Assembly: GCA_963826115.1 (NCBI GenBank)
Contig: CAWGVS010000011.1
Location: 1 to 64,000, forward strand
DNA: 64,000 bases
Source of the DNA: an uncultured Candidatus Rokubacteria bacterium
GTDB lineage: Bacteria; Methylomirabilota; Methylomirabilia; Rokubacteriales; DASRDR01
Direction: 5' to 3'
This document shows positions 35,277 through 53,161 of the stretch, piece by piece (within the stretch, counting starts at the first letter, position 1; each line of letters opens with the position of its first letter). The notes beneath the pieces are model-generated. The model saw only the letters and a program-made list of their open reading frames with translations. It was not told where the DNA came from and did not search any database. Both the position numbers and the translations under genes were made by a program.

Positions 35277-36893
35277 ATGACCTGCCTGAGCGAGCTCACG
35301 TGTTCGGTGTACGTCGACGGGGAGCTCTCCCCGGAGGAGACCCCGGCCGCCGAGGCGCATCTTGCGACCTGCGAGCGCTGCCGGTCGCTGGTCGCGGCGC
35401 TCCGGGATGAGATCCGAGTGGTCAGCGCGGCGCTCGCCGAGACGGCAGAGCCGGCGCCGTCGCCCGCTCCCGTCAGGGGGGCTGTCCTGGCCCCCGCTGC
35501 GGGGCGCGTCGCGACGAACGGCCGACGGACGTGGGGTCTGGCGGCGATCGTGGCGGCCCTGGCGGGGGCGGGGATCCTGGCCGTCCTCGCAGGGATCGCG
35601 ACGGTCGGCGACTGGACCGGCGCGGCCGTGGGCGCGGCGGTCTTCGTCGTGCTGAACGCCGAGACGCTGTGGGGCGCCCTCGCGACGCTGGCGCTCGCCA
35701 CGATGGCGGCGCTGACGCTGGCCGGCGCGGTCTATCTCGGGCGCCCCGCCTCGCGTGCGCTCGCGGGGCTCGCGCTGACGCTCGGGGTCGCGGCGGCGAT
35801 CGCCCCGTCGTCGGCCGAGGCGCTCGAGGCGCGGAGAGGCGTGGAAGTGTCGGTGGACGCCGGCGAGACCGTGGACGGGACCCTGACGGCCGCCGCCGAG
35901 CACGTCCGCGTGGACGGCAACGTCCGCGGGGACCTGATCGTCGCGGCGGCGCGCGTGGAGGTCCGGGGGACCGTGGGCGGCGATCTCGTGGTCGCGGGCC
36001 GCACCGTGGAGGTGACCGGCACGGTGGAGGGCAGCGTCTACGTCGCCGCCAGATCGTTCACGCTGCGCGGACGCGTGGGCCGGGGGCTCTATGCGGCGGA
36101 TCGCGAGACGCGCATCGAGCCGGGCGCGCAGATCGGGGGGGACCTCGCGATGGCGGGGCGGAGCCTGTTCCTCGGCGGCGAGGTGGCGCGGGGGGCGAGC
36201 ATGTTCGTGCGGGACGCGGAGGTGACCGGCCGCGTCCGGCGGGACCTCCGGTTCCGGGGTCACCGCCTCGTGGTGCGGGCGCCGGCGCGGCTCGAGGGCA
36301 TCGTGCGGGCCGACGTCGCGCGGGCCTCGGACGTCTCGGTCGACGCCGGCGCCGCCGTGACGGGGCCTGTGCTGACGCGCGTCGGGTCCCGGGTCGCCCA
36401 CTGGTTTGGCGAGCCCCGCGTCTGGTTCTGGGTGGCGACGAGCTTCTTCGGCGCGGCGCTCCTCGGCTGGGTGGCCCTGCTGGTCGTCCCGGGTCTAGTG
36501 GCGGGCAGCGCCGAGGACGTGGGGCGCTGGGGGCGATCCCTGGGATGGGGCGTTGCGTTTCTCGTCGGAGGCCCGGTCGCGATCGTGCTCCTCGCCGTGA
36601 CCCTGGTCGGCCTGCCGCTCGCCCTCGTCCTGCTGGGCCTCTACCTGCTCAGTCTCTACGCGGCGAAGATCGTCGTGGGCCTGGCGATCGGGCGCGCGCT
36701 CCTGAAGCCGCGGGGTCACCCCCGACGCGACGCGCTACGGGCGCTGGTGGTCGGGCTGGTGCTCGTCACCGTGGCCACGGCGCTGCCCTTCGTCGGCGGG
36801 GCGATCTGGGCGGCGATCGCGTGCCTCGGCGCCGGCGCGCTTGCGGCGCGGATCGCCCGCACGGCCCTCGGCGTGCGAAGCTCGGAGGCGTGA
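35277..36893 (+). CDS. Zinc-finger anti-sigma factor with bactofilin-like beta-helix repeats and C-terminal membrane domain
   Basis: YVDGEL...HLATCERC (zf-HC2), TM helices, repeated V.G.V.GDL motifs, several C-terminal TM helices. Confidence 0.8.
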   Translation: MTCLSELTCSVYVDGELSPEETPAAEAHLATCERCRSLVAALRDEIRVVSAALAETAEPAPSPAPVRGAVLAPAAGRVATNGRRTWGLAAIVAALAGAGILAVLAGIATVGDWTGAAVGAAVFVVLNAETLWGALATLALATMAALTLAGAVYLGRPASRALAGLALTLGVAAAIAPSSAEALEARRGVEVSVDAGETVDGTLTAAAEHVRVDGNVRGDLIVAAARVEVRGTVGGDLVVAGRTVEVTGTVEGSVYVAARSFTLRGRVGRGLYAADRETRIEPGAQIGGDLAMAGRSLFLGGEVARGASMFVRDAEVTGRVRRDLRFRGHRLVVRAPARLEGIVRADVARASDVSVDAGAAVTGPVLTRVGSRVAHWFGEPRVWFWVATSFFGAALLGWVALLVVPGLVAGSAEDVGRWGRSLGWGVAFLVGGPVAIVLLAVTLVGLPLALVLLGLYLLSLYAAKIVVGLAIGRALLKPRGHPRRDALRALVVGLVLVTVATALPFVGGAIWAAIACLGAGALAARIARTALGVRSSEA

Positions 36894-37564
36894 GCGTCGA
36901 GATCCGGACCGCCGCCGAGATCCTCACCCCCGAGCGAGCCGGGGCGTGGGAGGCCCGGCGGGCGCAGCGGGACGATCCGGTGCTCCGCGCCATCTGGCGC
37001 GCGTTCGTCGACACCGGCGGGCCGGTGACGCTCGACGGGGTGTCGCGGGCTCTCCGCGAGCTCACCGTCGACACGCTCCGCGAGCGGGCGTCCGCGCTGG
37101 ACGGCGCGGACCTGATCGGGTTCGAGGGAGAGCGGGTCGTTCTCGCGTACCCGTTCACGGCGGAGCCGAACGACTTCGAGGTGGTCCTGCCGGGCCGGCG
37201 GCACCGCTACGCGTGCTGCGCGATCGACGCGCTCGGCGTGGCGCCGATGCTGGGCGTGGGGGTGACGGTCCGCTCGCGCTGTCACCGGAGCGGCGACGCG
37301 CTGGTTCTCGACGTGGACCCGGAGGCCGGGCCTCTCGGGGCGCCGGCCGGCGTCGTCGCGTGGGTCGAGCGAGGCCGCTGGGGCGGCGACCGCCTCTCCG
37401 GCTTTCTCTGAACGCGCCTCAACTTCTTCCGGTCGGAGGAAGCGCTCGAGGCATGGCGCCGTGACACACCCGACGGGGACGGCGCTGCCCTCGTGCTCGC
37501 CGAGGCGTTCACGCTCGCGCGCCGGCTGTTCGGAGGGCTGCTCCTCCCGGCGGCCGCGCACTGA
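36890..37564 (+). CDS. MerB-like organometal lyase, predicted selenoprotein (Sec at TGA 37409-37411), 224 aa
   Basis: AYPFT, YACCAIDALG (cf. MerB YAWCALD, Cys96/Asp99), RSRCH; reading through TGA gives FL-U-TRLNFFRSEEALEAW (cf. MerB FCCHVHFFAS..AEDW); SECIS-like hairpin. Confidence 0.85.
37423..37442 (+). promoter_or_regulatory. Bacterial SECIS-like hairpin
   Basis: 11 nt after TGA: CTTCTTCC-GGTC-GGAGGAAG (8-bp stem with one G-U pair, GGUC loop). Confidence 0.75.
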
Positions 37565-37644
37565 CGGTCGGCGCCCGCGAGCGGGCCGGCGCGAGCCCGG
37601 CGTGTCATAATCGACGCGAGCGGTTCTCTCGGAAGGAGCGACTC

Positions 37645-38493
37645 GTGACGGACGGAACCTTCGGCTCGGTCGTCAGCACGGCGTGGCTCGGCGATCGACT
37701 GGGCGACCCCGCGCTGCGGATCCTCGACGCGACGTGGTACCTGCCGCACCTCCAGCGCGACGCGCGCGCGGAGTACCGCCAGGCGCACATCCCCGGCGCC
37801 CAGTACTTCGACATCGACGCGATCGCCGACCGCCGCCAGGGGCTGCCGCACATGCTGCCCGACGCGGCCACCTTCGCCGAGGCGGTCGGCGCCCTCGGGA
37901 TCGGCGCCGGCGACCACGTCGTGGCGTACGGGGGCAAGAACCTCGTGGCCTCCGCGCGCGTCTGGTGGACCTTCCGCGCGTTCGGGCACGACCGGGTGGT
38001 CGTGCTGGACGGGGGATTCCCGAAGTGGCGGGACGAGGGACGGCCGATCGAGGCCGGCGAGCCGACGACGACGGCGCGCCGGTTCACCGCCCGCTTCCAT
38101 CCGGAGTTGGTGACCGATCTCGCGGCCGTGCGGCGGAACGTCGAGACGCGGGTGACCCAGGTCGTCGACGCGCGCTCGGCGGGACGGTTCGCCGGCACGG
38201 AGCCCGAGCCCCGCGCCGGCCTCCGGGGCGGCCACATTCCGGGGAGCCTCAGCCTGCCGTACGACCGGCTCTTCGGGCCCGACGGCATGCTGCGCTCGCC
38301 GGACGACCTCCGCCGCGTCTTCGAGGGTGCCGGCGTCGCGCTCGACCGGCGGATCGCGACGACGTGCGGGTCGGGGGTGACGGCGTGCGTCCTCGCCCTG
38401 GGCCTCGATCGGGTCGGCCGTCCGGACGTCGCGGTCTACGACGGATCCTGGACCGAGTGGGGCGGCCGGGACGACGTGCCCGTGGAGCGGTAG
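37645..38493 (+). CDS. sseA: 3-mercaptopyruvate sulfurtransferase (tandem rhodanese)
   Basis: HIPGA, PHMLP, DARSAGRF.G..PEPR, GHIPGS, CGSGVTA active site, YDGSWTEWG. Confidence 0.95.
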   Translation: MTDGTFGSVVSTAWLGDRLGDPALRILDATWYLPHLQRDARAEYRQAHIPGAQYFDIDAIADRRQGLPHMLPDAATFAEAVGALGIGAGDHVVAYGGKNLVASARVWWTFRAFGHDRVVVLDGGFPKWRDEGRPIEAGEPTTTARRFTARFHPELVTDLAAVRRNVETRVTQVVDARSAGRFAGTEPEPRAGLRGGHIPGSLSLPYDRLFGPDGMLRSPDDLRRVFEGAGVALDRRIATTCGSGVTACVLALGLDRVGRPDVAVYDGSWTEWGGRDDVPVER

Positions 38494-38496
38494 CGC

Positions 38497-39582
38497 GTGC
38501 CGCGGCAGCGGATCGACCTCGAGCCGATCGACGCCCTCTCGATCCTCGACGAGGACGGGCGCCTCGACCAGGCCCTCGAGCCGGCGATCCCGGCGGACGA
38601 TCTCCGGCGCCTCTACCGAACGTTCCTCCTGGCGCGCCGGTTCGACGAGCGCATGCTGTTCCTCCAGCGCCAGGGCCGCATCGGCACCTACCTGCCGGCG
38701 CGCGGCCACGAGGCGGCGGTCCTCGGCAGCGTCTACCCGCTGCGCCCGACCGACTGGATGGTCCCCGTGTGGCGCGAGTGGGCGGCGTACGTCTGGCGCG
38801 GCTGGCCCCTCGACAACCTCATCCTGCTCTACGCGGGCCTGTCCGAAGGGACGTCGCCTCCCGCCGAGATCCGGGACCTGCCGGTGTGCGTCCCGATGGG
38901 GACCCACGTCCCTCACGCGGTCGGTGTGGCCTGCGCGGCCCGGGCTCGCCGCGAGGACAGCGTCGTGCTCTGCTACTTCGGCGACGGGGCGAGCTCCGAG
39001 GGGATCTGCCAGGAGGCGATGAACTTCGCGGGCGTCTACCAGGCGCCGATCGTCTTCGTGTGCGTCAACAACCAGTGGGCGATCTCGATCCCGCGCCTCC
39101 GGCAGACTCGGGCGAAGACCCTCGCCCACCGCGCCCTGGCCTACGGGTTCCCGGGCATCCAGGTGGACGGCAACGACCTCCTGGCCATGGTGGTCGCCAC
39201 CCGCGAGGCGGTGGCGCGGGCGCGCGAGGGCCGCGGCCCCACGCTCATCGAGGCCGTGACCTACCGGCTCCTGCCCCACTCGACGGCCGACGACCCGAAG
39301 AAGTACCGCGACGAGGCCGAGGTCCGGGCGTGGGAGGCGCGGGAGCCGCTGCCGCGCTTCCGTCGCTATCTCGAGGTGAAGGGGCTGGTTGACGACGCGC
39401 TCCGCTCCCGGTTCGAGGAGGAGGTGGACGCCGAGGTCCGCGCGGCCATCGAGCGGGCCGAGGTGCGCATGCAGGCGGCCCGGCCTCTCGCGATGTTCGA
39501 CCACGTCTACGGCGACGTCCCGGCCGAGATCCTCGCGCAGCGGGCCGAGTTCGAGCAGGAGCTCGAGGGGGACCGCCGCTGA
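38497..39582 (+). CDS. pdhA: 2-oxoacid (pyruvate) dehydrogenase E1 alpha subunit
   Basis: LQRQGRIGTY, GDGASSEG...NNQWAIS TPP motif, VDGND, HSTADDPKKYR. Confidence 0.88.
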   Translation: MPRQRIDLEPIDALSILDEDGRLDQALEPAIPADDLRRLYRTFLLARRFDERMLFLQRQGRIGTYLPARGHEAAVLGSVYPLRPTDWMVPVWREWAAYVWRGWPLDNLILLYAGLSEGTSPPAEIRDLPVCVPMGTHVPHAVGVACAARARREDSVVLCYFGDGASSEGICQEAMNFAGVYQAPIVFVCVNNQWAISIPRLRQTRAKTLAHRALAYGFPGIQVDGNDLLAMVVATREAVARAREGRGPTLIEAVTYRLLPHSTADDPKKYRDEAEVRAWEAREPLPRFRRYLEVKGLVDDALRSRFEEEVDAEVRAAIERAEVRMQAARPLAMFDHVYGDVPAEILAQRAEFEQELEGDRR

Positions 39583-39595
39583 CCCCGCAGGCGAG

Positions 39596-39664
39596 CTACT
39601 CGATGACTCGGTCGGCCCGTGCCAGCAGGGACGGGGCGAGGGCCAGACCGAGAGCCTCGAGCGC
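39596..39664 (-). pseudogene. C-terminal remnant of an ABC substrate-binding protein (PF04392-like)
   Basis: Minus strand reads ALEALGLALAPSLLARADRVIE*, matching the family terminus KALGLTIPPSLLARADxVIE*. Confidence 0.65.
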
Positions 39665-39678
39665 CTCCTCCCCGTGAA

Positions 39679-41232
39679 TCACGCGTCGCGGTCGATGGTG
39701 GCGCGCGGGCGGCTGTCGCGGTCCAGGAAGTAGTTGATCCAGGAGCTCGTGCCCCGGAGGGCGCGGTCCGGCGGGGGCACGAGGGTCAACAGCTCTCGCT
39801 CCCGTCCGGCCGCGCGGGCGCGCGCGTGCATGCCGACCCACACGCAGGGCTGGTCGGCGACCTCGCAGCGCCCGAGGTGGGTGCCGCCGCACGGCCCGTT
39901 CCGGAGCCGCTTCGGGCAGGTCTCCGGGCAGACGTACTCGAGGTGGCCGAGCACGCAGTTGCCGCACGCCTGGCACCCGAACAGCGGCCGCTTGACCGCC
40001 AGCTCGAGCCGCTCGACCGCCTGGGCCACGGCGGGCCGCCGGTCCGCCCAGGCGGCGACTCGGGCGAGCGCGCGCCGGAGAGCCGTGTCCCGCGTCACCG
40101 GGAGGAGCCGGCCGAGCCCGTCGAGGAAGCGGGCGATCCCGCGGCGCCACGACCCTTCCTCGTCCGTCGCCACCGCGAGGCGGTGGGTGCCCGGGACGGG
40201 CTGCGGCCCGGCCGCTCCCGCTTCTGGAGCCGCCACGCGGCTGGCGGGCCGGTCGTAGAGGTAAAAGCCACCCGCAAGCCCGTAGCGGAGCTCCTGCGCC
40301 AGCTCCTCCCAGCGCGGGGCCAGGTCGCGCGCGCGCCGGATGATCCACGCGACGTGGTCGGCGTCGTGCGTGCCGCCCAGGTACGCCCCCGCGTAGCCGA
40401 GCCCCCGGAGTACGGCGACCGTGCGCGCCGCCCGCTCGAGGCGGGCCCGGAGCCCGCCGTCCTTCGCGCGCGCCTCCTGGCGCACTGTTTCGAGGAGCTC
40501 CGGCGACACCCAGCATCCCGGCGGCTCGCCGCGGGCCATCCGCTCGGCGGCGCGAGGGCCGAGGACGTACACGTTGCCGAGGAGAGGGATCCGGAGGCTC
40601 TTCTCGTCGACGTACCGGCGGAGCTCGCGGAACTTCTCGGCGTCCCACCCCACCTGCGTGATCGCGCAGTCGGCTCCCGCCGCCACCTTCTTCTCGAGCT
40701 TCAGGTACTGCCAGACGCAGTCCCCCTCGACGTACTTGAAGGGCGAGACCGCGACGGCGACGTGGAGCCGCCGACCGGCGCGGCGCCGCTCATGGATCAT
40801 CCGCACGAGGTGGACGGAGTCGACGTCGAAGACCGGCGACTCCGGCGGGGGACCGCCGGGACGCGGACGGGGCCAGTCCCCGGTCAGCGCGAAGACGTTC
40901 TCGATGCCGAGCGCCTGCAGGTCCTCGATCGTCTTCCGGAGGCCCGCGCGGTCCTGGCCGACGCATGTGACGTGGATGTTGGGCGTGAGCCCCCGGGCCC
41001 GCGCGGCGGTGCCCACCCGCATCGGGTCGTGCCCCATCGCGCCGCCCGCGTAGCTCGTGATGCTGCCCGCCACGACGTCGGGCACCCGCGCGAGCCGGGA
41101 CGCCACCTCGAGGAGCTTCGCCTCGCGCTGGAGGCCGGACGCGACCAGCTCGACGACGTAGCAGAAGCGGCCCGCGCCGAGGGCGTCGGCCAGCGGGTTC
41201 GCGGCGAGCGGTTGTTCGGGCTCCGGAGTCAC
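39679..41232 (-). CDS. metF: Methylenetetrahydrofolate reductase with fused Cys-rich C-terminal (MetV-like) domain
   Basis: HVTC..DR, NVFALTGD, KKVAAGAD..ITQ; C-terminal CQACGNC...CPETCPKRLRNGPCGG...CEV...CVW. Confidence 0.85.
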   Translation of the reverse strand: MTPEPEQPLAANPLADALGAGRFCYVVELVASGLQREAKLLEVASRLARVPDVVAGSITSYAGGAMGHDPMRVGTAARARGLTPNIHVTCVGQDRAGLRKTIEDLQALGIENVFALTGDWPRPRPGGPPPESPVFDVDSVHLVRMIHERRRAGRRLHVAVAVSPFKYVEGDCVWQYLKLEKKVAAGADCAITQVGWDAEKFRELRRYVDEKSLRIPLLGNVYVLGPRAAERMARGEPPGCWVSPELLETVRQEARAKDGGLRARLERAARTVAVLRGLGYAGAYLGGTHDADHVAWIIRRARDLAPRWEELAQELRYGLAGGFYLYDRPASRVAAPEAGAAGPQPVPGTHRLAVATDEEGSWRRGIARFLDGLGRLLPVTRDTALRRALARVAAWADRRPAVAQAVERLELAVKRPLFGCQACGNCVLGHLEYVCPETCPKRLRNGPCGGTHLGRCEVADQPCVWVGMHARARAAGRERELLTLVPPPDRALRGTSSWINYFLDRDSRPRATIDRDA

Positions 41233-41278
41233 GGGATCACCCGATCCGGCGGGCTCGACGGGAGGGGCCCGCCCGGGA

Positions 41279-42286
41279 TCAGGCGCCCAGCTCGGCCCGC
41301 ACGAGCCGCGCGCCCTCGACCATCGCGACGAGCTTCGCGAAGGCGACGTCGCGCGGGAGGTGCATGAGGCCGCAGTCCGGGTTGACGGCCAGGCTCTTGG
41401 CGGGCACCAGGTCGAGGGCGGCCCGGATCCGCTCGGCCACGACGGCGGCCGTCTCGATGTCGTGGCTCTTGACGTCCACGACGCCGAGCCCGAGCGTGAA
41501 CTGGGGATCGAAATCCTTGAAGAGGCGGACGTCGTCCTCGCCCCGGCGCGCGAACTCGAGCGTCAGCTGGTTGATGCGCGCGTCGAGGATCGCCGGGAAC
41601 AGGTACCGGTAGCTGCCCTCCCAGGACGGCTTGCCGTAGCGGTTGCCGTAGCACACGTGGAGCGACAGGCGCGCGTCCACGCCCTCGACGAGGGCGTTGA
41701 GGGCCCGCACCGCCCAGGGGATGTCCTCGGGAAACCCCGAGTAGTACGGCTCGTCGATCTGGATGTCCGTGGCCCCCGCCCGGGCGAGCTCGCGGAGCTC
41801 GATGTTCATGACGCGGGCGATGTCGAGGGCGAGGGCTTCCTCGCTCGGGTAGTACTCGTTCCGGATGCGCTTGACGAGCGAGAGCGGGCCGGTGACCGAC
41901 ACCTTGGTGCGGCGCTCGGTGTAGCGTCGGAGGAAGCGGAACTCCTCGACCAGGCCCAGCGAGCCGGTCGGCAGGCGTCCCCGGACGGCGGCGTCGTAGA
42001 AGTCGTAGTAGAACTTCTTCGAGGTGTGGTCGATCTGCACGCCGGGGAGCCGGGTCGTGAAGTGGTCGATCATGTTGTCCCGGCGCAGCTCTCCATCGGA
42101 CACGATGTCGACGCCCGCCGTCTCCTGGTCCTTGATCGCCGCTTTGACCGCCGCGTCGTGAATCTCCTCGAGGTCGTGCCGGGAGAGACGACGGTGGAGG
42201 TAGTCGTTCTTGGCCCGCTCGAGCCAGCCGGGCATCGAGTAGCTCCCGATGACGGCGGTGAGCAGGACGGGGTCAGGGCGTGACAT
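41279..42286 (-). CDS. Cobalamin-independent methionine synthase catalytic-domain-only (core MetE-like) protein
   Basis: IGSY, DQETAGVDIVSDGELRR, IQIDEP, Zn ligands HVC, LEF, PDCG; no N-terminal folate-binding half. Confidence 0.88.
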   Translation of the reverse strand: MSRPDPVLLTAVIGSYSMPGWLERAKNDYLHRRLSRHDLEEIHDAAVKAAIKDQETAGVDIVSDGELRRDNMIDHFTTRLPGVQIDHTSKKFYYDFYDAAVRGRLPTGSLGLVEEFRFLRRYTERRTKVSVTGPLSLVKRIRNEYYPSEEALALDIARVMNIELRELARAGATDIQIDEPYYSGFPEDIPWAVRALNALVEGVDARLSLHVCYGNRYGKPSWEGSYRYLFPAILDARINQLTLEFARRGEDDVRLFKDFDPQFTLGLGVVDVKSHDIETAAVVAERIRAALDLVPAKSLAVNPDCGLMHLPRDVAFAKLVAMVEGARLVRAELGA

Positions 42287-42344
42287 GGGCATGTCTCCAC
42301 TCCACATCGGGCTGCTGCGATGGCCGCGAGGTCAAGGGCCCGCC

Positions 42345-43813
42345 CTATTCCCGCGGGGTCGTGTAGAGGATCGACGTGCGCGATCCCGGACGGTACCGGA
42401 ACGGCGCGAAGTGCACGTCGAACCCGGTCCGCGCGCCGATGGCTCGCAGGAGCGCGCCGTTGACCCAGTTCACGACCGAGCCGTCGAGCTTGCCGGGCCC
42501 CCGGAATCCCTGGCGGTACTCGTGCATGTCCGCGACGAAGATGTCCTGCACCTGGAGGTAGCCGCGCGGGTGGAGGAGGGGCACGGTGTGAACGAAGCTC
42601 TCCGCCGCGCCGCGCGAGAGATGGAAGCGCACGTCGTCGGGCGCCTCGGCCAGAAGGTCCTCGAGGTGGCTCTGGTCGAGGCCGGGCGGCAACGGCACCT
42701 GGGAGACGTCCTCCAGCCCGACGAGCCGCTCCTCCAGGCGCAGCGCGTCCCACGCCGCCCGCCAGAACTCGACGCCGCGCGCGCGGTCGCCGAGCGCTTC
42801 CGGCCCCACGAGGATCAGCTGGTCGAGGAGCCGAGGAAGGTCGCCGGCGGCGCACCCCGCGATCCCCGCGACGCGCGCGGCCGCCTCGCGCGGCAGGTAC
42901 GCGCGCGTCTCGACCAGGTAGAGCCGCCCGTCCCGCCGGACCACCTCGTCGTGAGGCAGGTTGTCGTAGACGTTGGTGAGGTGGATGTAGAGGATCTTGT
43001 ACCGGAGGAAGGAGAGGGTCTTGAGGGGATTCAACGCGTCCATCGGGATGACGCTCACGAGGTCCCGGTGCGTGGAGACGGCGTCCATCGCCCGATCGAG
43101 CGTGGGCAGCGAGTAGTCGCCCAGGAGGAACCGGAGGCGCGGGTAGTAGCTGGTCCCGCGCTCCTCGTCGAGTGCCCGGAACCGGTCGAGCCAGAGCGCG
43201 GCGCGCTGGCCCGAGCCCACGCCGATCTCGAGGGCGAAGACCTCGGGGGGAGCTGGCCCCGCTTCTCGAGGTCCCGCAGGAGCGTCCAGAAATCGGCGAC
43301 CGAGTCCGCCACCGCATCGGGGCGCCTGGCGTCCGATTGCCCGCTGGGAAGCGCCTCCTCGAACCGGCGGCCGGAGGCGGCCTCCCAGTCCCCCACGCGC
43401 TGCCAGAAGAGCCGGTTGAAGCGCCAGATCACGCTGTCGCGTACGGGAGTCCACGTCTCGAGGGCGACTCCGCCCGCCGGGCCTTCCTCGAGCGGGTCCG
43501 CGGCTCCGCGGAGCGCCCGGGCGAGCGTCTCGCCGAGCGTGGCGGGGTCCACGCGGCGAAGGTCCACGGCGAGCTCCGCGAGAGCGAGGGCCCCGCCGGA
43601 CCGGTCGGCGGCGCGGCGGACGAGAACGGGCTCGCGGAAGTTCGCCTTGTACTGGATCCAGTCCAGATGGACCCGCAGGCTCGGCACCAGGCGTGGCTCG
43701 ATGACCCCGTTGGCGACCAGGCCGAGGAGGGTCCGGACGATGTCCGCGCTCCGCTCGGCGAGGATGCCTTGCTCTGGGCCGCCCGGCGGGATGTGATTGA
43801 CGTGGAGGATCAT
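42345..43813 (-). CDS. Class I SAM-dependent methyltransferase-like protein (MidA/NDUFAF7-like), with an apparent 1-nt deletion in a G6 run near 43245-43250
   Basis: MILHVNHI...LEKRGQLPP continues in another frame as EVFALEIGVGSG (motif I), LLGDYS, TNVYDNLP. Confidence 0.7.
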
Positions 43814-44023: not shown

Positions 44024-44518
44024 ATGCGAGGGAATCTCGTGGTGGGCGGTCGCTTTCCCGATCTCGAGCTGCCCGATCACCGGCGGCAACCCGCGACGCT
44101 GAGCGGGCTGGCCGACGGGTTTCCGCTGATCGTGTCCTTCTACCGGGGCTACTGGTGACCCAAATGCCAGTGCCAGTTGAGGCACTTGGTCGAGTTCCAG
44201 AACGAGCTCGAAATCAACTACTGCCACCTCGCGGTGATCAGTACCGACCCGCCGGAGATCTCGGCCGCGTTCCGCGCCGGATTGGGCGCCACGTTCACGT
44301 TCCTGAGCGACCATGACCGCCGGGCCGTTCGGGAGCTCGACATCGTGGACGAGACGGACCGGAATCACCCTCGGATCGCGTACCCGTGGAGCTTCTCGAT
44401 TGGGCCGGATCTCGTGATCCACAAGATCTACGACGGCGGCTGGTTCGTGGGTCGCCCGACGCTCGAGGAGCTGCGACAGGACCTGCGCGCGATGATGCTC
44501 GCCTACCACCCGGACTGA
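44024..44518 (+). CDS. Peroxiredoxin-like (AhpC/TSA) redoxin, predicted selenoprotein with UxxC (Sec at TGA 44156-44158), 164 aa
   Basis: G.RFPDLELPD, SFYRGYW-U-PKC, AVISTD, FTFLSD; the two ORF-track halves are in the same frame; SECIS-like hairpin. Confidence 0.88.
44167..44189 (+). promoter_or_regulatory. Bacterial SECIS-like hairpin
   Basis: CCA-GTGCC-AGTTGA-GGCAC-(T)-TGG; the upper stem starts 11 nt after the TGA and the loop contains GU. Confidence 0.7.
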
Positions 44519-45724: not shown

Positions 45725-45778
45725 GGCGAGACCTCCTGGGGCCGCGCCCCCGCGGGGCGCCCCGGCGCGTGCGAGTCG

Positions 45779-46294: not shown

Positions 46295-46351
46295 TTGACA
46301 GCAGCAAGCTTGGTTCGCTAGTGTCAAACACCATTCGATCGGATCTGTCAA
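46295..46351. promoter_or_regulatory. Divergent promoter/operator region with three TTGACA boxes
   Basis: TTGACA (46295-46300), TGTCAA (46322-46327) and TGTCAA (46346-46351) between the CMD and XRE genes. Confidence 0.5.
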
Positions 46352-46398
46352 GCGGGCGGGCTTCCGCGTGGTGGGTGAGAGGAGTGCGAGGACCAGCG

Positions 46399-47064: not shown

Positions 47065-48263
47065 CGAGACGAGGATGGGTCCTGAGCGGACTTGCGGCGA
47101 TCGCGGTGGCCGGCTGGCTGGCGTGGCCCGCGGCGGTGGCGGCCCAGACGATCAAGGTCGGGGCGGTTGTGCCCCTGACCGGGCGGTACGCGGCCCCGGG
47201 CGCCCAGGTGCGAACCGGCTACGAGATCGCGATCGAGGACGTGAACCGCGGCGGAGGCGTGACCGTAGGCGGCAAGAAGATGCCGCTCGAACTGGTCCTC
47301 CTGGACGACGAGTCCGACGCGACGAAGACCGTCGCTCGGTACGAGACCCTCGCCGCCGAGGGCGTCACGGTCTACCTGGGGACGTTCGGCTCCGATCTCC
47401 ACGCCGCGGCGGCCTCGGTGGCCGAGAAGAACAAGGTCCCGTACATTGGCGTCGCCTTCGCCCTCCACAAGATCCACGAGCAGGGGTTCCGCTATCTCTT
47501 CTCGCCGTTCTGGAAGTCGCCCGACATCGGTCAGCAGCTGGTCCCGATGCTGAACTCGATCCCGGCCGCCGACCGGCCCAAGAAGGTCGCGCTTTTTCTG
47601 GAGAAGACCGACTGGGGCCGCGAGATGGCCGCGGCGTGGGTGGAGGCGGGCAAGGGTGCGGGGTATGAGGTCGTCGTCCAGGGCGAGTACGCGGTGGGCT
47701 CGAAGGACTACTCCGACCTGATCCTCAAGGCGAAGGCCGCGAATGCCGACGCGATGTTCTCGCTGCCGACCCCTCCGGACGGGATGGCGATGGTCAAGCA
47801 GATGCACGAGCTGGACTTCAACCCGAAGCTCGTGTTCGTCATCCGCGCGCCCGACGCGCCGGTCTGGTCGAAGAACCTGGGGAAGGATGGTGACTACACC
47901 GTCTTCGCTCCGGGCTGGCACAACGCGTTCAAGTATCCCGGGGTGGCCGAGCTGAACGCGGCGCACGTGAAGAAGATCGGGCGCCCCGCCGATCCGATCA
48001 CGGGCCCGGCGTACGCGTGCGTGCAGATCCTCGCCGCGGCGCTGACCAAGGCCGGCGCGGCCGACCGGGAGAAGGTGCGCGACGCGATCGCGGCGACGGA
48101 CATGACGACCGTCATCGGGCCGGTCAAGTTCCGCGCCGACGGTACCGGGATCGTCCAGGGGGCCTTCCTCCAGTGGCAGAACGGCAAGCAGGAGCTCGTC
48201 TGGCCGAAGGAGTTCGCCACGCAGCCGCTGGGCTATCCGGCGCCGCCGTTCTCCAAGCGGTGA
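47061..48263 (+). CDS. Branched-chain amino acid-type ABC substrate-binding protein
   Basis: Signal peptide, IKVGAVVPLTGRYA, DDESD, QWQNGKQELVWP. Confidence 0.9.
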   Translation: MTRRGWVLSGLAAIAVAGWLAWPAAVAAQTIKVGAVVPLTGRYAAPGAQVRTGYEIAIEDVNRGGGVTVGGKKMPLELVLLDDESDATKTVARYETLAAEGVTVYLGTFGSDLHAAAASVAEKNKVPYIGVAFALHKIHEQGFRYLFSPFWKSPDIGQQLVPMLNSIPAADRPKKVALFLEKTDWGREMAAAWVEAGKGAGYEVVVQGEYAVGSKDYSDLILKAKAANADAMFSLPTPPDGMAMVKQMHELDFNPKLVFVIRAPDAPVWSKNLGKDGDYTVFAPGWHNAFKYPGVAELNAAHVKKIGRPADPITGPAYACVQILAAALTKAGAADREKVRDAIAATDMTTVIGPVKFRADGTGIVQGAFLQWQNGKQELVWPKEFATQPLGYPAPPFSKR

Positions 48264-48303
48264 GGGCGGAGCGAGCCGTCCGGACCTCGTCGTCGCTCCC
48301 CTG

Positions 48304-49071
48304 GTGACATCGACCGCGCCCCTGCTCGCCCTCGAAGGTGTCTCGAAGGCCTTCGCGGGCGTGCAGGCGGTTCGGAGCGTGAGCCTCGAGGTCCCGGCGG
48401 GAGCGGTCGTCGGGATCATGGGGCCGAACGGCTCCGGCAAGACCACGCTGTTCAACCTGATCGCGGGGGCGCTGCGCCCCGACCAGGGGCGCATCCGCCT
48501 CCGTGGTCAGGACGTCACCCGGCTTCCCTCGCACCGCCGGTGCGCGCACGGCGTGGCGCGCACCTTCCAGCACGTGCGGCCGTTTCCGGGTCTCACGGCA
48601 ATCGACAACGTCCTGGTGGGGCTCCTCCACGGGCGCCGGCGGACTCACGGGCGCGACGCCGAGCGCGCCGCGACGCGCTTCCTGGCCCTGGCGGGCCTCG
48701 AGGACAAGGCGCACGTGCCCGGGGCGCGCCTGAGCCTGCTCGAGCGCCGGCGCCTCGAGCTCGCGCGCGCGCTCGCCACCGGCCCGGAGCTCCTCCTGCT
48801 CGACGAGTTCATGGCCGGCCTGACCCCGGCCGAGACCGGGGACGCGATGGCGGTCATCCGCCGGATCCGGGACGAGGGCGTGACCCTCATGCTCGTGGAG
48901 CACATCGTGTGGGCGCTCCTGGACCTCTCGAACCGGATCGTCGTCCTCAGCGCGGGGGAGAAGATCGCCGAGGGCGCCCCGGGCGCGGTGGCGGTGGACC
49001 CGGCCGTCGTCGAGGCATACCTGGGGCGGGAGGGAAGCGGAGGGAGCGCGGGGAGCCGGTCGCGTGCTTGA
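48304..49071 (+). CDS. livG: Liv-type ABC ATP-binding protein
   Basis: GPNGSGKTTLFNLI, ARTFQ, LELARALA, LLLDE, VVEAYLG. Confidence 0.88.
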   Translation: MTSTAPLLALEGVSKAFAGVQAVRSVSLEVPAGAVVGIMGPNGSGKTTLFNLIAGALRPDQGRIRLRGQDVTRLPSHRRCAHGVARTFQHVRPFPGLTAIDNVLVGLLHGRRRTHGRDAERAATRFLALAGLEDKAHVPGARLSLLERRRLELARALATGPELLLLDEFMAGLTPAETGDAMAVIRRIRDEGVTLMLVEHIVWALLDLSNRIVVLSAGEKIAEGAPGAVAVDPAVVEAYLGREGSGGSAGSRSRA

Positions 49072-49783
49072 GGTCCGAGACCTCGACGCGACGTACGGAG
49101 AGCTCCGGGCGCTGGTCGGGGTCGGCCTGCAGGTCGGCGCCGACGAGATCGTGGCGCTCGTCGGCTCCAACGGCGCCGGCAAGACGACGCTGCTCCGGTG
49201 CATCACCGGTCTCACGCGCCCGCGCGCCGGCCGGATCCTGTGGCAGGGCCAGGACCTCGTCGGGCTTGCGCCGCACCGCGTGGTCGAGCGCGGCGTCGCG
49301 ATGGTACCCGAGGGCCGCCGGCTCTTCGGGCACATGACGGTCGAGGAGAACCTCTCGCTCGGTGGGTTCAGCGCCCGGGCGCGCCCCGAGCGCCAGGCGA
49401 CCCTCGACCGCATCTACGGGATCTTCCCCCGGCTGGCCGAGCGCCGACGGCAGCGGGCCGGCGCCCTGTCGGGCGGCGAGCAGCAGATGGTGGCGATCGG
49501 ACGGGCGCTCATGACGCGCCCGAGCCTCCTGATCCTGGACGAGCCTTCGCTCGGCCTCGCGCCGCGCGTGGTCGAGCTCGTGCTCGGGGTGCTCGGCGAG
49601 ATCAACCGCGCGGGGGTCGGGGTCTTCCTCGTGGAGCAGAACGTCCGGGCCGCACTCGGCCTGGCCCACCGCGCCTACGTGCTGGAGCAGGGCCGGGTGG
49701 TGGGGCAGGGCCCCAGCGCCGAGATCCTCGCGGATCCCGGCGTGCGCCGCGCGTATCTCGGGCCGCTCGCGGTCGAGCCGTGA
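49064..49783 (+). CDS. livF: Liv-type ABC ATP-binding protein
   Basis: GSNGAGKTT, VPEGRRLF, LSGGEQQM, LDEPSLGLAP, VEQN. Confidence 0.9.
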   Translation: MLEVRDLDATYGELRALVGVGLQVGADEIVALVGSNGAGKTTLLRCITGLTRPRAGRILWQGQDLVGLAPHRVVERGVAMVPEGRRLFGHMTVEENLSLGGFSARARPERQATLDRIYGIFPRLAERRRQRAGALSGGEQQMVAIGRALMTRPSLLILDEPSLGLAPRVVELVLGVLGEINRAGVGVFLVEQNVRAALGLAHRAYVLEQGRVVGQGPSAEILADPGVRRAYLGPLAVEP

Positions 49784-49796
49784 CGGTGGGACGGGC

Positions 49797-50669
49797 GTGA
49801 CCGGACTCCTCCAGCAGCTGGTCCTCGGCGTCCTGCTGGGGAGCCTCTACGGGCTGGCGGCCGCCGGCCTGTCCCTCGTGTTCGGCGTCCTGCGGGTGCT
49901 CAACGTGGCGCACGGCGAGCTGATCATGCTGGGCGGATACGCCGCCTTCGCCCTGGTGGCGATCCTGGGGCTCGATCCGTTCCTGGCGCTGCTCCTGATC
50001 ATCCCGCTGGGAGGTCTGCTGGGCGCCCTCCTCTACGCCGGGCTGTTCCGCTTCATCGTGCGTCACGGCGAGGAGACGCGGATCAAGAACTCGCTCCTCG
50101 TCGGATTCGGTCTCGCCCTCACCCTCCACGCGCTGGCCGTGCGGCTCTTCACGGCGGACGAGCGGTCGATCACCACCGCCTACCGCGGACGCTCCCTCGT
50201 GCTGGGGGGTGTGGTGTTCCCCCTCGGGCGCGTCCTGAACTTCGTCGTCGCGCTCGCCCTGATCGCCGTGCTGCATCAGTTCCTCCAGCGGGCCCGCTGG
50301 GGCCAGGCGATCCGCGCGACCGCCGAGGACTGGGAGGCCGCGAGCCTGCTCGGGATCGACGTCCGGCGCGCCTACACGCTGGCCTTCGCCATTGGCACCG
50401 CGCTGGCGGGAACCGCCGGTACGCTCATCAGCCTGGGCTACTCGATCAGCCCCTCCATCGGGCTCGAGTGGACGCTGAAGGCGCTGATCGTGATCGTGCT
50501 GGCCGGGCTCGGGTCCGCGTTCGGCACGCTTGCGGGCGGCATCCTGCTCGGGTGCGCCGAGGCGCTGAGCGCCGTGGCGTTCGGGGGCGCCTACCGCGAG
50601 GTGGTCGGGCTGCTCCTCTTCTTCTGCGTCCTGGTGGCCCGTCCCCAGGGCCTGTTCGGGCGAGCGTGA
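49797..50669 (+). CDS. livH: Liv-type ABC permease
   Basis: GLSLVFGVLRVLNVAHGE, GQAIRA, RPQGLFG. Confidence 0.88.
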   Translation: MTGLLQQLVLGVLLGSLYGLAAAGLSLVFGVLRVLNVAHGELIMLGGYAAFALVAILGLDPFLALLLIIPLGGLLGALLYAGLFRFIVRHGEETRIKNSLLVGFGLALTLHALAVRLFTADERSITTAYRGRSLVLGGVVFPLGRVLNFVVALALIAVLHQFLQRARWGQAIRATAEDWEAASLLGIDVRRAYTLAFAIGTALAGTAGTLISLGYSISPSIGLEWTLKALIVIVLAGLGSAFGTLAGGILLGCAEALSAVAFGGAYREVVGLLLFFCVLVARPQGLFGRA

Positions 50670-51646
50670 CCGGCGGGGTGCGCCGCGTGAAGCTCGGGCG
50701 CGCGGCCGGATCGGCGGCCGTCCTCGCGTTGATCGGGCTCGCGCCCCTCGTGATCGCCCGGGAAGACTGGCTCAACCTGGGAGTCGTGTTCTTCCTCGTG
50801 GTGGCTCTCGCGCAGAGCTGGAACATCATGGGCGGCCTCGCGGGGCAGGTGAACCTCGGCCACGCGGCCTTCTTCGGGCTCGGCGCCCTGGTGACGCGCC
50901 ATCTCTGGACCGCCGGCACGCCGGTGGTCGTCGCGATGGGAGCGGGCACGGCGGTCGCCACGGTCGCCGGCCTCGCCGTCGGACTGGTCGCGTTCCGGCT
51001 GCGCGGCGCGTACTTCGCCATCGGGACCCTGGCCCTGGCCGAGGTGCTCCGCATCGCCGTCGGCAACCTGTTGCCCGAGATCTCCACGCTTCCGGCGGCC
51101 GCCATCGCCGCCTACCGGCTCCCCGACCGCTACTACGCCGCGGCGCTTCTGGCCGTGGGTAGCACGCTCGTGGTGGCATGGGTCGCGAGCTCGCGTCTCG
51201 GGCTCGCGATGGAGGCCATCCGGGAAGACGAGGGCGCCGCCGAGGCCTCGGGGGTGGGGGCGTTCCGCGTGAAGCTCGCGGCCGTGGCCGTGTCGACCAG
51301 CCTCGCGGGGCTGGCGGGCGGGCTGTTCGCCTTCTACCACATCAGCTATTACCCGCAGCACGCGTTCGGCCCGACCTGGACCTTCGACGCCGTGCTCGTG
51401 ACCTTCATCGGGGGCGTGGGCACGGTGCACGGGCCCGTTCTCGGCGCGGCCCTGTTCGTGTTCCTGCGGGAGTACCTGGCGCTGCACTGGGTGGACCTCC
51501 ACCTCCTGATCTTCGGGGTCCTGTTCATCGCCATCGTGCTGCTCCTGCCGGGAGGGCTCGTCGAGGCGACCGCGCGGCTGCGGGGGCTCGCCGGCCGGCG
51601 TCGCCCGCGTGGCGCCGACGGGGCGGGGGCGGCCCGCTCCGTCTGA
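50666..51646 (+). CDS. livM: Liv-type ABC permease
   Basis: SWNIMGGLAGQVNLGHAAFFG, RLRGAYFAIGTLA, AIREDE, GGVGTVHGPVLGA. Confidence 0.88.
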   Translation: MTGGVRRVKLGRAAGSAAVLALIGLAPLVIAREDWLNLGVVFFLVVALAQSWNIMGGLAGQVNLGHAAFFGLGALVTRHLWTAGTPVVVAMGAGTAVATVAGLAVGLVAFRLRGAYFAIGTLALAEVLRIAVGNLLPEISTLPAAAIAAYRLPDRYYAAALLAVGSTLVVAWVASSRLGLAMEAIREDEGAAEASGVGAFRVKLAAVAVSTSLAGLAGGLFAFYHISYYPQHAFGPTWTFDAVLVTFIGGVGTVHGPVLGAALFVFLREYLALHWVDLHLLIFGVLFIAIVLLLPGGLVEATARLRGLAGRRRPRGADGAGAARSV

Positions 51647-51787
51647 GCGCCGCGGCCGCTCGCCCCGGGGCGCCGGGCAGGGGGAAGCCTTGCCATGTCG
51701 GGAGTGATCGGGCATAGTGTCCCGGGCTTCGCGCCTCAACGCGGCCGCCCTCACCCGAACCCGTGGCCCCGGCCGCGAGGAGCGCAC

Positions 51788-53161
51788 ATGGCGACGTCCG
51801 AGAGCTTCCCCGCGCTCGGAGCGATTCCCGTCGGCTACGGACCCGAGGGTATCGCCGTCGACGGCGAGGGCCGCCGGGGCTACGTCGCGTGCGCGCGGGC
51901 CAACACGGTCGCCGTCTTCGACCTCGATTCCCGCGAGGTGATCGCCCAGGTGCCGGTCGGCCAGGAGCCGATCGGGCTCGTGCACGACCGGGACGGCGGC
52001 CGCGTCTTCTCGACGGACGCCCGCTCCGACGTCGTGTCGGTCATCGACACCGCGAGCCTCAAGATCGTCAAGCAGATCCCCGTGCAGCACTACCCGGCCG
52101 GCGCGGGGTTCTACGCCGAGCGCCGCAAGATGTACGTCGGGAACACTGCCGACGGGACGGTGAGCGTCATCGACGCCGACCGGCTCGAGGTCATCGCGAC
52201 CGTCCCGACCAAGCTCGCGGCGGGGAGCCTCGGGGCCGATCCGATCCGCGACCGCGTCTACTGCGTCAACTTCGGGGACGCGTCGATGACGCTGATCGAC
52301 GGCGAGAAGAACGAGGCGATCGGCGAGATCAAGCTCGACTACGCGCCCTGCAAGATCGCGGTCGACGCGCGGCGGGGGCGCGCCTACGTGGCGAACTCCC
52401 TCGTCAGCACCGTCTCGGTCGTCGATCTCGACCGGCAGGAAGTCGTGGACACGCTGACCGTGGAGCGCGCGCCCGTCGGCATGGGCCTGGGACGCCAGGG
52501 CGACCGCATCTACGCGGCCAACCGGGGGACCGGGCACGTCAGCGTGATCGACCGGGAGAGCGGCCGCGAGTGGGCGCGGGTGCCGGTCGGCAAGGCCCCC
52601 GGGGACCTGGCGGTCGACCAGCAGTCGGGGACGGTGTACGTGTCCGACGCCGGGACCAGCACCGTCAGCGTGTTCCAGGACCGGCTGGACGGCGCGCCGG
52701 CCGAGCTGCCCAAAGACTGGCGTCACCCGCTCGTCGGCAAGCCGCTCCCTTCGTTCAGCCTGCCCGACATGGTGGACGGGCGGCCGCGCACCTCGGAGGA
52801 GTTCAGAGGGAAGAAGTACATCCTGAACTTCTTCGCCAGCTGGTGAGGGCCCTGCAACGCGGAGGCTCCGCTACTCGAGGAAGTGCGTCGCCGGGCCAAG
52901 AAGTTCGGGCTCGAAATCGTCATGGTCAACGTGTGGGAGCACGTGGATCCACGGCGTGAGGCCCAGCATTTCTGCAAGATCCACAACATCGAGGGCACGG
53001 TGCTGATCGACGCCACCGGGGAGTACATCACGCGGCTCGGTCTCCGCGGAGTGCCCCACAACGTGGTCGTCGACAAGAAGGGCATCGTCCAGGCGGTCGG
53101 GGTCACGACCCCCGACGAGGTCCGCGCCACCCTGACCAAGCTGCTCCTGCCCTTCGGCTAG
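51788..53161 (+). CDS. YncE/YVTN beta-propeller fused to a TlpA-like thioredoxin domain, predicted selenoprotein (UGPC; Sec at TGA 52844-52846), 457 aa
   Basis: About seven IPVG..P.G / YVAN / TVSVID repeats, then GKPLPSFSLPD..G....SEEFRGKKYILNFFASW-U-GPCNAEAP...RGVPHNVVVDKKG; both ORF-track halves are in frame. Confidence 0.88.
52859..52871 (+). promoter_or_regulatory. Bacterial SECIS-like hairpin
   Basis: 12 nt after TGA: GCGG-AGGCT-CCGC with G-containing loop; short stem. Confidence 0.6.

Follow-up and report, generated by a model that had tools for sequence, protein, structure and literature searches.

Three probable selenocysteine codons, one of them in a MerB-like gene, close together on a contig of an uncultured Candidatus Rokubacteria bacterium

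Among the enzymes to which the genes described here can be compared, roles of Cys96, Asp99, and Cys159 have been described for the lyase MerB, and SaoL is a MerB-like "selenocysteine-assisted organometallic lyase" (NF040728) that comes from anaerobes, belongs to a nine-gene locus, contains a CU dipeptide, and has its selenocysteine (Sec) aligned to Cys159 (Haft & Gwadz, bioRxiv 10.1101/2022.07.06.499078, in the accessible parts of the preprint). Peroxiredoxin-like (Prx-like) and thioredoxin-like (Trx-like) selenoproteins with a UxxC motif are standard catalogue entries (accessible passages of PMC9312934 and PMC13188914), and a Methylomirabilota genome with 63 predicted selenoprotein genes has been published (accessible passages of PMC13188914). 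The window analyzed here is the first 64 kb of contig C11 in a 6.24-Mb bin with 72% GC from an uncultured Candidatus Rokubacteria bacterium, and it carries three genes that are each crossed by an in-frame TGA, encoding a MerB-like protein (gene 1), a Prx-like protein (gene 2), and a beta-propeller fused to a TlpA-like thioredoxin-fold domain (gene 3, propeller-Trx). The nearest loci in named genomes are titled Candidatus Rokubacteria, Rokuibacteriota, or Methylomirabilota. Judged from sequence comparison, the three TGAs are quite probably Sec codons in three independent genes of a selenoprotein-rich Candidatus Rokubacteria/Methylomirabilota bacterium, and not the parts of one system.

The sequence-only reading that drew attention to this region had reported the three TGAs, with frames continuing into family-typical sequence, and had placed each TGA on the catalytic Cys of its family. 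The codons lie exactly at the positions given in Table 1, third-position GC (0.84-1.0) stays in one coding frame through each of them, and a Pfam match extends across each, so that this part of the reading is borne out. The placement on a catalytic Cys stands insofar as relatives of all three proteins have Cys in the corresponding column, and it is left in doubt for gene 2, for which the alignments to known structures disagree. The pairing of Cys and TGA among homologues, described below for each gene, was also found as that reading had anticipated.

The gene 1 protein passes the broad Pfam MerB family with 83.9 bits against a cut-off of 27, and MerB of the Protein Data Bank (PDB) could be aligned over its residues 60-213 with an E-value of 1.9e-8. 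Since YACCAIDAL in gene 1 matches YAWCALDTL in MerB, C110 corresponds to Cys96 and D113 to Asp99, and the ungapped alignment, together with the precedent of SaoL, would put U174 at the site of Cys159. The columns of C110, D113, C131, and U174 are invariant in 14 sequences with 38-77% identity, position 174 being either C or U. An AlphaFold model of the protein (predicted local distance difference test, pLDDT, 85.7; predicted template modeling score 0.86) finds its best PDB fold matches in MerB2 (5c17) and MerB (3f2f), with a Foldseek E-value of 2e-11 and template modeling scores of 0.67-0.75. Two observations limit this reading: HMMER sets U174 opposite Cys160 of MerB, beside a one-residue gap, where the ungapped reading leads to Cys159, and pLDDT falls below 50 exactly over residues 163-175, the loop that contains U174. 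Because of this low confidence, the spatial closeness of C110, D113, and U174 is taken from the alignment and not from the model.

Conservation of the gene 1 codon is extensive. Matches to the gene occur in 32 of 41 related genomes, and the 33 aligned copies, which include the window, a second copy on contig C5, and one row from the unpublished genome G038, have TGA in 32 cases and TGC in one (locus L040 of genome G025). Within 75 distinct full-length sequence windows around the codon, retained from 77 of which two are cut by contig ends and again including one row from G038, TGA is present in 73 and TGC in two. A search of the phylum, which takes in the unpublished genomes G113, G074, and G244, found the gene in 112 of 251 genomes; among the 129 matches listed, 107 carry a single TGA and the remaining 22 lack one, three of these being partial and short of the site and most of the others belonging to two families of the same class. 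Cys occupies the U174 column in seven of eight full-length database relatives with 27-39% identity, the eighth having lost both this residue and the equivalent of Cys110, and also in loci L040 and L134. The motif around the codon reads L/F/T/I-U-T/H/P/S/R across the homologues, a profile search collected 1164 cluster representatives of the clade at E <= 1e-10, and conservation of the protein remains strong past the TGA (NFFRSEEHLRAW and onward). The single close homologue with Cys is that of G025 (SICLT), a genome that is 98% complete and in which selB was not found at E <= 1e-60; in this Cys form the 3' arm of the hairpin described below is lost, and the combination of Cys, a decayed hairpin, and no detected selB fits a loss of the Sec trait.

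In gene 2, the AhpC-TSA match spans residues 7-133, including U45, with 65.7 bits against a gathering cut-off of 26. All 17 full-length rows with at least 67% identity carry one TGA, and in two more genomes the gene appears in two pieces, with the TGA within the first. Six full-length relatives with 54-59% identity have FFCPRD aligned to YWUPKC in every case; they contain a single Cys, located at the U column, five of the six continue into a cold-shock domain (Pfam PF00313), and their named records are titled Actinomycetota or Rubrobacteraceae. The canonical peroxidatic motif of peroxiredoxins is PxxxT/SxxC. The active-site stretch of gene 2 reads FYRGYWUPKC, and its two best PDB alignments disagree, one of them putting U on the peroxidatic Cys and the other putting it on Ser, three residues before that Cys.

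In gene 3, which starts with an ATG at 51788 behind a promoter-like site at 51690-51718, the propeller part matches NCBIfam beta_rpt_yvtn (1.7e-44), and the Redoxin match (PF08534, 72.3 bits) covers residues 347-474, including U384, when residues are counted from 51695. The ResA, DsbE, and TlpA models of NCBIfam leave the protein under every cut-off, and no signal peptide or membrane anchor is apparent at its N-terminus by eye, no predictor having been run. All 14 full-length rows with at least 76% identity, from 13 genomes, carry one TGA, and two paralogues of the Trx domain in the bin itself have WCVPC and WCYPAC at the U column.

As predicted by the sequence-only reading, gene callers truncate these genes: the database homologues of gene 1 are nearly all 172-173 residues long and cover 77% of the query, and the close database homologues of gene 2 are pieces of 101-113 residues that start after the TGA. 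That gene calls end or start at these codons would also be expected if the TGAs were true stops, sequencing errors, or pseudogene lesions followed by untranslated frames, and the window does contain at least one probable one-base error elsewhere. Such an explanation has a next to negligible probability, as the TGA is shared by more than 100 genomes across many assemblies, protein conservation and the coding-frame signal are strong past the codon, relatives have Cys at the column, and short-read contigs run across two of the sites with no difference. One of these contigs covers 44005-44200, around the TGA of gene 2, with zero differences, and one of the runs may be the source sample; across the TGA of gene 3 the only contigs are those of relatives, which show 41-72 differences and from which nothing was drawn. 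Reading of the three codons as Sec is therefore preferred.

The sequence-only reading had described a hairpin with a G-containing loop 11-12 nt after each TGA, and such hairpins are present, beginning 11, 10, and 12 nt past the TGA in genes 1, 2, and 3, with the loops GGUC, AGUUGA, and GGC. In the bacterial selenocysteine insertion sequence (SECIS) model, bSECIS, the apical-loop G lies at about 16-37 nt after UGA, and the key loop G in the SECIS of Escherichia coli fdhF is at position 23. The evidence for these elements comes from constraint at the RNA level more than from folding. In gene 1, synonymous change is nearly absent from codons +5 to +9 after the TGA (F F R S E) in the 75 sequence windows: CGG is used in 72/72, TCG in 73/73, TTC in 74/74, and the disfavored GAA in 64/70, with nearby Arg and Ser codons of the same windows using three to six codons and the commonest Arg codon accounting for 24-65%. 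The 20-mer over the hairpin is identical in 53 of the 75. The stretch TGCCAGTGCCAGTT..GGCACTT of gene 2, with its rare Leu codon TTG/TTA, is unchanged in 12/12 orthologues, and the stretch GCGGAGGCTCCGC of gene 3, with a rare GCT codon, is identical in 12/12; since these 12 orthologues are close relatives, the identity is weaker evidence than that for gene 1.

A positional rule asks for a stem of at least 5 bp with three or more G-C pairs and for a loop of 3-7 nt that opens at nt 18-27 and has GU or GG near its beginning. Of the 22 non-redundant Sec sites in the bin, with the two C5 copies left out, 18 conform to it, the three window sites among them, compared with 10.5% of 20,000 control coding windows; the rule was written after the sites had been seen, so it is post hoc and its p-value is optimistic. 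Moreover, the loops GGUC(U) and AGUUG recur in unrelated selenoprotein genes of the bin, such as those for formate dehydrogenase and TlpA-like proteins, the AGUUG loop of gene 2 being found in two other selenoprotein genes. Folding energies weigh on the other side. The z-scores against dinucleotide shuffles are -0.72, -3.60, and -0.81 for genes 1-3 (with a 62-nt fold for gene 2); among 1500 in-frame coding windows drawn at random, 22%, 76%, and 63% have folds that are as stable or more so; taken together, the 24 Sec sites show no greater stability (Mann-Whitney p = 0.12); and the hairpin of gene 3 has only 5 bp, with a single-sequence fold that is not significant. Fold energy was dropped as evidence, the folds being no better than those of random coding windows in a genome of 72% GC. 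The case for a SECIS element is strong for gene 1, good for gene 2, and weak for gene 3. A search of 36500-53500 with Rfam at a permissive threshold gave no SECIS family and only five chance-level matches to microRNA and small RNA families. RNAalifold, applied to 12 propeller-Trx orthologues, preferred a hairpin directly after the UGA with an AAC loop, and this candidate was rejected, its loop being too near the UGA and devoid of G.

Table 1. Features of the window around the three in-frame TGA codons; stem and loop positions are counted from the U of UGA
Feature	Position	Strand	Evidence and remarks
Gene 1, MerB-like lyase selenoprotein (predicted), 224 aa	36890..37564	+	Pfam MerB PF03243 1.2e-23, residues 89-215, spans U174
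Gene 1, UGA read as Sec (U174), FLUTRLNFF	37409..37411	+	TGA conservation; Cys in relatives
Gene 1, SECIS-like hairpin	37423..37442	+	8-bp stem 15-22/27-34, GGUC loop at nt 23-26
Gene 2, Prx-like selenoprotein (predicted), 164 aa, YWUPKC	44024..44518	+	Pfam AhpC-TSA PF00578 5e-18, Redoxin 1.5e-10
Gene 2, UGA read as Sec (U45)	44156..44158	+	Cys homologues; matching public-run contig
Gene 2, SECIS-like hairpin	44169..44186	+	6-bp stem 14-19/26-31, AGUUGA loop
Gene 3, YVTN/YncE-type beta-propeller fused to TlpA/ResA-like thioredoxin fold, 457 aa, SWUGPC	51788..53161	+	Pfam Redoxin 4.6e-20, YNCE 6.7e-14
Gene 3, UGA read as Sec, first position of UxxC redox motif	52844..52846	+	Paralogue Cys; TGA kept in 12/12 orthologous loci
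Gene 3, SECIS-like hairpin	52859..52871	+	5-bp stem 16-20/24-28, GGC loop; weakest of the three
ECF-type sigma factor	34663..35274	+	Pfam Sigma70_r2 6.4e-14, Sigma70_r4_2 2.7e-14; open frame bounded by stop codons, start position uncertain; opens the block that contains the MerB-like gene
Anti-sigma factor, zf-HC2 + bactofilin	35250..36893	+	Pfam zf-HC2 5.9e-8, Bactofilin 2.2e-9 on open reading frame 34692-36893; start approximate, coding frame switches at about 35250
3-Mercaptopyruvate sulfurtransferase, two rhodanese domains	37645..38493	+	NCBIfam NF008557 275.9 bits (cut-off 250); context only
MTHFR (with DUF5981) + core MetE-like methionine synthase	39679..42307	-	Pfam MTHFR 4.6e-22, DUF5981 1.1e-22, Meth_synt_2 1.8e-42
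SAM-methyltransferase-like gene, two frames in the window	42345..43810	-	One-base difference near 43246
LivK/G/F/H/M-type ABC importer	47080..51646	+	Pfam; variable insertion 5' of propeller-Trx; context only

The genes needed to decode UGA as Sec, which the sequence-only reading had proposed to look for, are all in the bin (selA, selB, selC, and selD, on contigs C8 and C5). A single tRNA-Sec, detected with ARAGORN on C8, adjoins selA (576.5 bits, cut-off 267.9) and selB (347.8 bits, cut-off 242.25), and selD (C5:561687-562604, 393.2 bits) has an in-frame TGA of its own, so that selenophosphate synthetase is itself a selenoprotein in this bin. Of the 41 genomes of the order, the bin included, 35 have selB above the cut-off, as do 13 of the 14 other genomes of the genus. 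With this machinery, a hairpin that starts 10-12 nt past the UGA would present a G-rich loop about 20-26 nt from it, and SelB carrying Sec-tRNA(Sec) might bind the hairpin and cause Sec to be inserted instead of termination.

When the whole bin was scanned by codon usage, 163 candidate in-frame TGAs emerged, from which 20 were picked by eye for active-site-like motifs, and a Pfam domain lies across the TGA in 19 of these 20. The 19 comprise four TlpA/Redoxin-type, three AhpC-type, four rhodanese, and three CMD proteins, and the rest are one each of OsmC, DsrE, Rdx, Thioredoxin_3, the molybdopterin domain of formate dehydrogenase, and a class-I glutamine amidotransferase. Together with the three window genes, two C5 copies, and selD, the bin has at least 25 selenoprotein genes.

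Several of the further genes of the bin deserve mention in their own right. The TGA of the amidotransferase (C10:35818-36600, minus strand, locus L158; Pfam GATase 4.2e-7) is at the nucleophile (G-T-U-G-G-F-Q), a kind of selenoprotein that does not appear in the catalogue passages accessible here. In a GrdB-like candidate (C5:1416836-1417612, minus strand, L146) with the motif VPTUPVCHQ, the Pfam GRDB match stops three residues before U. Two adjoining genes at C6:536300-537573 (minus strand, L154/L155) encode Prx (FNGPUIKE) and TlpA-like (WATWUPDC) selenoproteins with TGAs 563 bp apart, and as a candidate for joint function this pair surpasses the three genes of the window. By their motifs, four further codons are candidates for Sec (C11:74618, C11:106720, C12:750167, and C10:441009), two being CMD-like with CxxU, one MoeB/ThiF-like (PSUNEAGVLG), and one without an assigned family; two of the four are on C11 and would raise the number on this 239-kb contig to five. 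A further TGA at 20264, flagged by the genome scan, was discarded as a false positive, being the stop of one subunit gene with the GTG start of the next membrane-subunit gene in frame 3 nt later; it lies in a stretch (16914-23960) of hydrogenase-4/formate-hydrogenlyase-type membrane subunits with a [NiFe] large subunit ending in Cys and not in Sec, these families having been judged by eye.

The attribution of all this to one organism has to be qualified. C11 from 16 to 238 kb is collinear, in reversed orientation, with C5 from 2,124,945 to 1,908,940 (216 kb), mostly at 78-88% nucleotide identity, and the C5 stretch has second copies of the MerB-like and propeller-Trx genes; the Prx-like gene (43852-44592) is without a counterpart there, and C5 has an extra 12.5 kb between the genes for E1 dehydrogenase and MTHFR. 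The contamination estimate of the bin (CheckM type) is 5.34%. C11 may thus come from a second congeneric genome in the bin, or reflect a very large duplication, with the Sec genes on C8 and C5, which counts against assigning the window genes and the Sec machinery to a single genome. The Sec reading is not weakened by this, because 13 of the 14 other genomes of the genus have selB, and the selenoprotein count is given for the bin, because C11 may belong to a second organism.

The sequence-only reading had gone further and suggested that the three genes and their neighbors may be a single module that depends on selenium and serves either alkyl transfer to and from thiols or selenols or the turnover of organometal(loid)s. 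Several points speak for this. A MerB fold implies carbon-metal chemistry, operons with several selenoprotein genes such as SAO and Tso are known (accessible passages of PMC13188914), and within the genus there is linkage between the MerB-like and propeller-Trx genes, which lie on one contig, 8-19 kb apart, in nine of its 14 other genomes. When genes are placed at random, three of them come to lie inside 15.4 kb in 3.6% of trials with 25 genes and in 6.6% with 30, which is somewhat unlikely by chance, and in 46% with 63. In addition, a MerB-like gene of 38-43% identity lies directly between a MetE-like gene and LivKHMGF, in two orientations, in L106/L107 (4813-11200) and L111 (123-5900). The linkage within the genus and this distant adjacency leave room for a functional link and weigh to that extent against treating the genes as independent. 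The adjacency is a weak lead, since Liv-type transporters occur in many loci and it may be due to chance; L106 and L107, moreover, share an identical stretch around the TGA.

The arrangement of the genes argues against a module. Minus-strand genes separate each pair of the three selenoprotein genes and stand on both sides of gene 2, so there is no shared transcript and at least three transcription units exist. The linkage was not found beyond the genus: in G015 and G017, from other genera with both genes, MerB-like and propeller-Trx are on different contigs, and in 65 MerB-like loci from named genomes with a match (66 were fetched) the neighbors seen in the window recur only in 11, with 64-76% identity, L106/L107 and L111 being the only ones among the other 54 that share a MetE-like gene and a Liv transporter beside the MerB-like gene. 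The Prx-like gene and the Liv transporter behave as variable insertions, which come and go even among close relatives. The Prx-like gene lies between the other two only in G008 and near propeller-Trx in G011, and elsewhere it is far away (0.37 Mb in G014, 1.8 Mb in G003) or on another contig; directly 5' of propeller-Trx, 11 orthologous loci outside the window have LivM (three), MetE2 (three), CMD/HTH-cupin (three), or no detected gene (two). MTHFR and the adjoining core MetE are ordinary methionine synthesis, context that is outside any selenoprotein system, and the only Sao family match in the NCBIfam scan is SaoL, under its cut-off, with no SaoB or SaoX match for the Liv substrate-binding protein. 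A single module is thus unlikely, and the three genes appear to be close because of a local gene order in one genus and a high density of selenoprotein genes, not because of joint function.

The neighbors named by the sequence-only reading (a sulfurtransferase, MTHFR, two core MetE-like enzymes, a methyltransferase, a CMD protein, and a Liv importer) are right, and the list misses a pair of extracytoplasmic function (ECF) sigma and anti-sigma factors, an E1 dehydrogenase alpha subunit, and an HTH-cupin regulator. The order of the genes is as follows: a plus-strand block with ECF sigma, anti-sigma (zf-HC2 and bactofilin), MerB-like, 3-mercaptopyruvate sulfurtransferase, and E1 dehydrogenase alpha; a minus-strand block with MTHFR, core MetE-like, and methyltransferase-like genes; Prx-like on the plus strand and then a second MetE-like gene and CMD on the minus strand; and HTH-cupin, LivKGFHM, and propeller-Trx on the plus strand, followed by a glycosyltransferase and a sulfatase on the minus strand. 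These surroundings look like ordinary methionine and sulfur metabolism; the core MetE-like protein scores 297.7 bits with the NCBIfam methionine synthase model, under the cut-off of 406. The gene called an S-adenosylmethionine (SAM) methyltransferase is frameshifted and gave no Pfam match at 42345-43810, where an EIGVGSG motif is present, and it has 0.98 in the ESM Atlas to clusters named "putative SAM-dependent methyltransferase", in which Methyltransf_28 is found in 15-18% of the members. In the relative L078 it is one open frame of 451 or more residues, and contigs from two public runs have an extra C at 43246/43247, so that the split is a probable assembly error or recent frameshift.

Regarding function, the product of gene 1 would be an enzyme of the MerB fold in which Cys110, Asp113, and Sec174 take the places of Cys96, Asp99, and Cys159 of MerB, and which most likely cleaves a carbon-metal(loid) bond or handles a soft electrophile; gene 2 would encode a one-Sec Prx-like thiol peroxidase or oxidoreductase; and in gene 3 a TlpA-like thiol:disulfide oxidoreductase, with a UxxC center, would be joined to a beta-propeller. 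The GTG start of gene 1 overlaps the TGA stop of the anti-sigma gene (GTGA), and this overlap suggests that the two are translationally coupled. An ECF sigma gene is present 5' of the MerB-like gene in eight of the 11 same-genus-level loci (L074-L083, L096) and also in L098 and L100, at 29-30% identity, and the sulfurtransferase is present 3' of it in nine of the 11 and in none of the 54 others. RsrA-type anti-sigma factors with a zinc finger act as sensors of thiol-reactive stress. The coupling of gene 1 to the ECF sigma/zinc-finger anti-sigma pair would therefore suggest that stress might induce the enzyme.

The surroundings of the family in sister genera are also informative. In L098 (3778-8604, genome G015), the order is ECF sigma, zf-HC2 anti-sigma, a fusion of MerT and HMA domains, a MerB-like selenoprotein, and a disulfide oxidoreductase. 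In the MerT-like membrane protein with its HMA domain, the GMTCxxC motif reads GMTUGSC, and the pyridine-nucleotide disulfide oxidoreductase has the redox motif GTCLGRGU (C-x4-U), this flavoprotein having MerA (352.8 bits, cut-off 454.45) as its best NCBIfam model and lipoamide dehydrogenase as a very close second. L088 (1165-4344, genome G017) has the same order of MerT-HMA, MerB-like, and flavoprotein. A true three-selenoprotein operon around the MerB-like gene is thus found in these two sister genera and not in the window, whose genus keeps only the sigma/anti-sigma pair and the lyase. A MerT-like neighbor is present in six of the 55 loci L084-L138, and the family would seem, from these gene neighborhoods, to be tied to heavy-metal handling in some lineages. 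In the bin itself, no MerA was found above the cut-off, the best match (388.6 bits against 454.45, C11:200198-201562) having an ordinary CxxxxC site, and no MerT-like gene was found by tblastn with two queries. It can be proposed, tentatively and with a probability clearly below even, that the MerB-like proteins are a large uncatalogued family, centered on Rokubacteria and distinct from SaoL, whose members act as the lyase of a Sec-dependent detoxification of organometal(loids) or soft electrophiles, induced by the ECF sigma factor through a zinc-thiolate anti-sigma sensor and complete as a mer-like operon in the two sister genera.

All three enzymes are misannotated in public data, where MerB-like calls lose the catalytic Sec and the last 50 residues and Prx-like calls lose the active site. 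In Rokubacteria, a phylum found repeatedly in runs of soil metagenomes, surveys of genes for redox and metal handling therefore miss or misread these enzymes. With SaoL as the first, this would be another kind of MerB relative that contains Sec; it would carry selenium-assisted carbon-metal chemistry beyond anaerobic fermenters into soil bacteria, and it has relevance for estimates of methylmercury breakdown that are built on merB gene counts. If the proposed Sec-based detoxification pathway were true, it would be a widespread selenium counterpart of mercury resistance in soil, missed since every key gene is cut at UGA.

Compared with known systems, the Prx-like protein shares with the catalogued Prx-like/redoxin UxxC selenoproteins, including those related to SelL (NF040769), the AhpC/TSA fold and a Sec in a UxxC at the active-site turn, and it differs in scoring 30.8 bits with NF040769 (cut-off 120) and in having the single-Cys FFCPRD proteins with cold-shock fusions as its nearest full-length relatives. 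The propeller-Trx protein shares with the TlpA/ResA-type UxxC selenoproteins ("thiol-disulfide isomerase-like protein"; "WAxxUGC", NF041054) the Redoxin/thioredoxin fold and Sec as the first residue of a CxxC-type motif; its own motif is SWUGPC, it reaches 47.2 bits with NF041054 against a cut-off of 300, and it differs by the fusion to a YVTN beta-propeller of about 300 residues. With the multi-selenoprotein operons (SAO, Tso, grdAB, and prdBC, in the accessible passages of PMC13188914) the window has in common the closeness of several selenoprotein genes, whereas its genes are not co-oriented neighbors and their linkage is confined to one genus.

With MerB (EC 4.99.1.2; PDB 1S6L, 3F0P, and 3F2F; MerB2, 5C17), the gene 1 protein shares the fold, a triad of the Cys/Asp/Cys type, and C131 as the equivalent of the structural Cys117, at an identity of about 20-24% and with Sec in place of the second Cys. 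It fails both curated MerB models (61.1 bits against 193 and 51.5 against 200 for NF009710 and NF033555, respectively), and the mer operon context (MerA, MerR, and MerT/P) is absent around the window gene, whose neighbors are unrelated. With SaoL, as described in the accessible parts of the preprint cited above, it has in common the MerB fold, a Sec that would occupy the Cys159 position, the retained equivalents of Cys96 and Asp99, truncation in databases about 50 residues before the true end, and a location outside the classical mer operon. These shared features, and a match to NF040728 with an E-value of 8e-11, would favor the view that gene 1 is a SaoL orthologue in a reduced SAO system. 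This is very unlikely, as the match amounts to 42.1 bits against a cut-off of 140 and covers residues 33-143 only, both MerB models score higher, the motif is L-U-T (F-L-U-T) and not a CU dipeptide, and SaoL comes from anaerobes and a nine-gene locus, with nothing similar in the window scans: none of the nine-gene SAO families (SaoB, P, T, C, X, E, and D, among others) was found when 14 proteins of the window and the loci were run against NCBIfam, the Liv ATPases and permeases (four genes) having been compared with Pfam only. The host of gene 1 belongs to a soil-type Rokubacteria lineage, unlike the anaerobes described for SaoL, and the gene follows an ECF sigma/anti-sigma pair. In the literature searched, SaoL is the only MerB-like selenoprotein described, and supplementary lists may already hold the present family. 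What would be new here is the MerB-like clade; a functional island of three selenoproteins would be much less remarkable, because the genome with 63 selenoprotein genes is in print and Prx-like and Trx-like selenoproteins are catalogued (accessible passages of PMC13188914).

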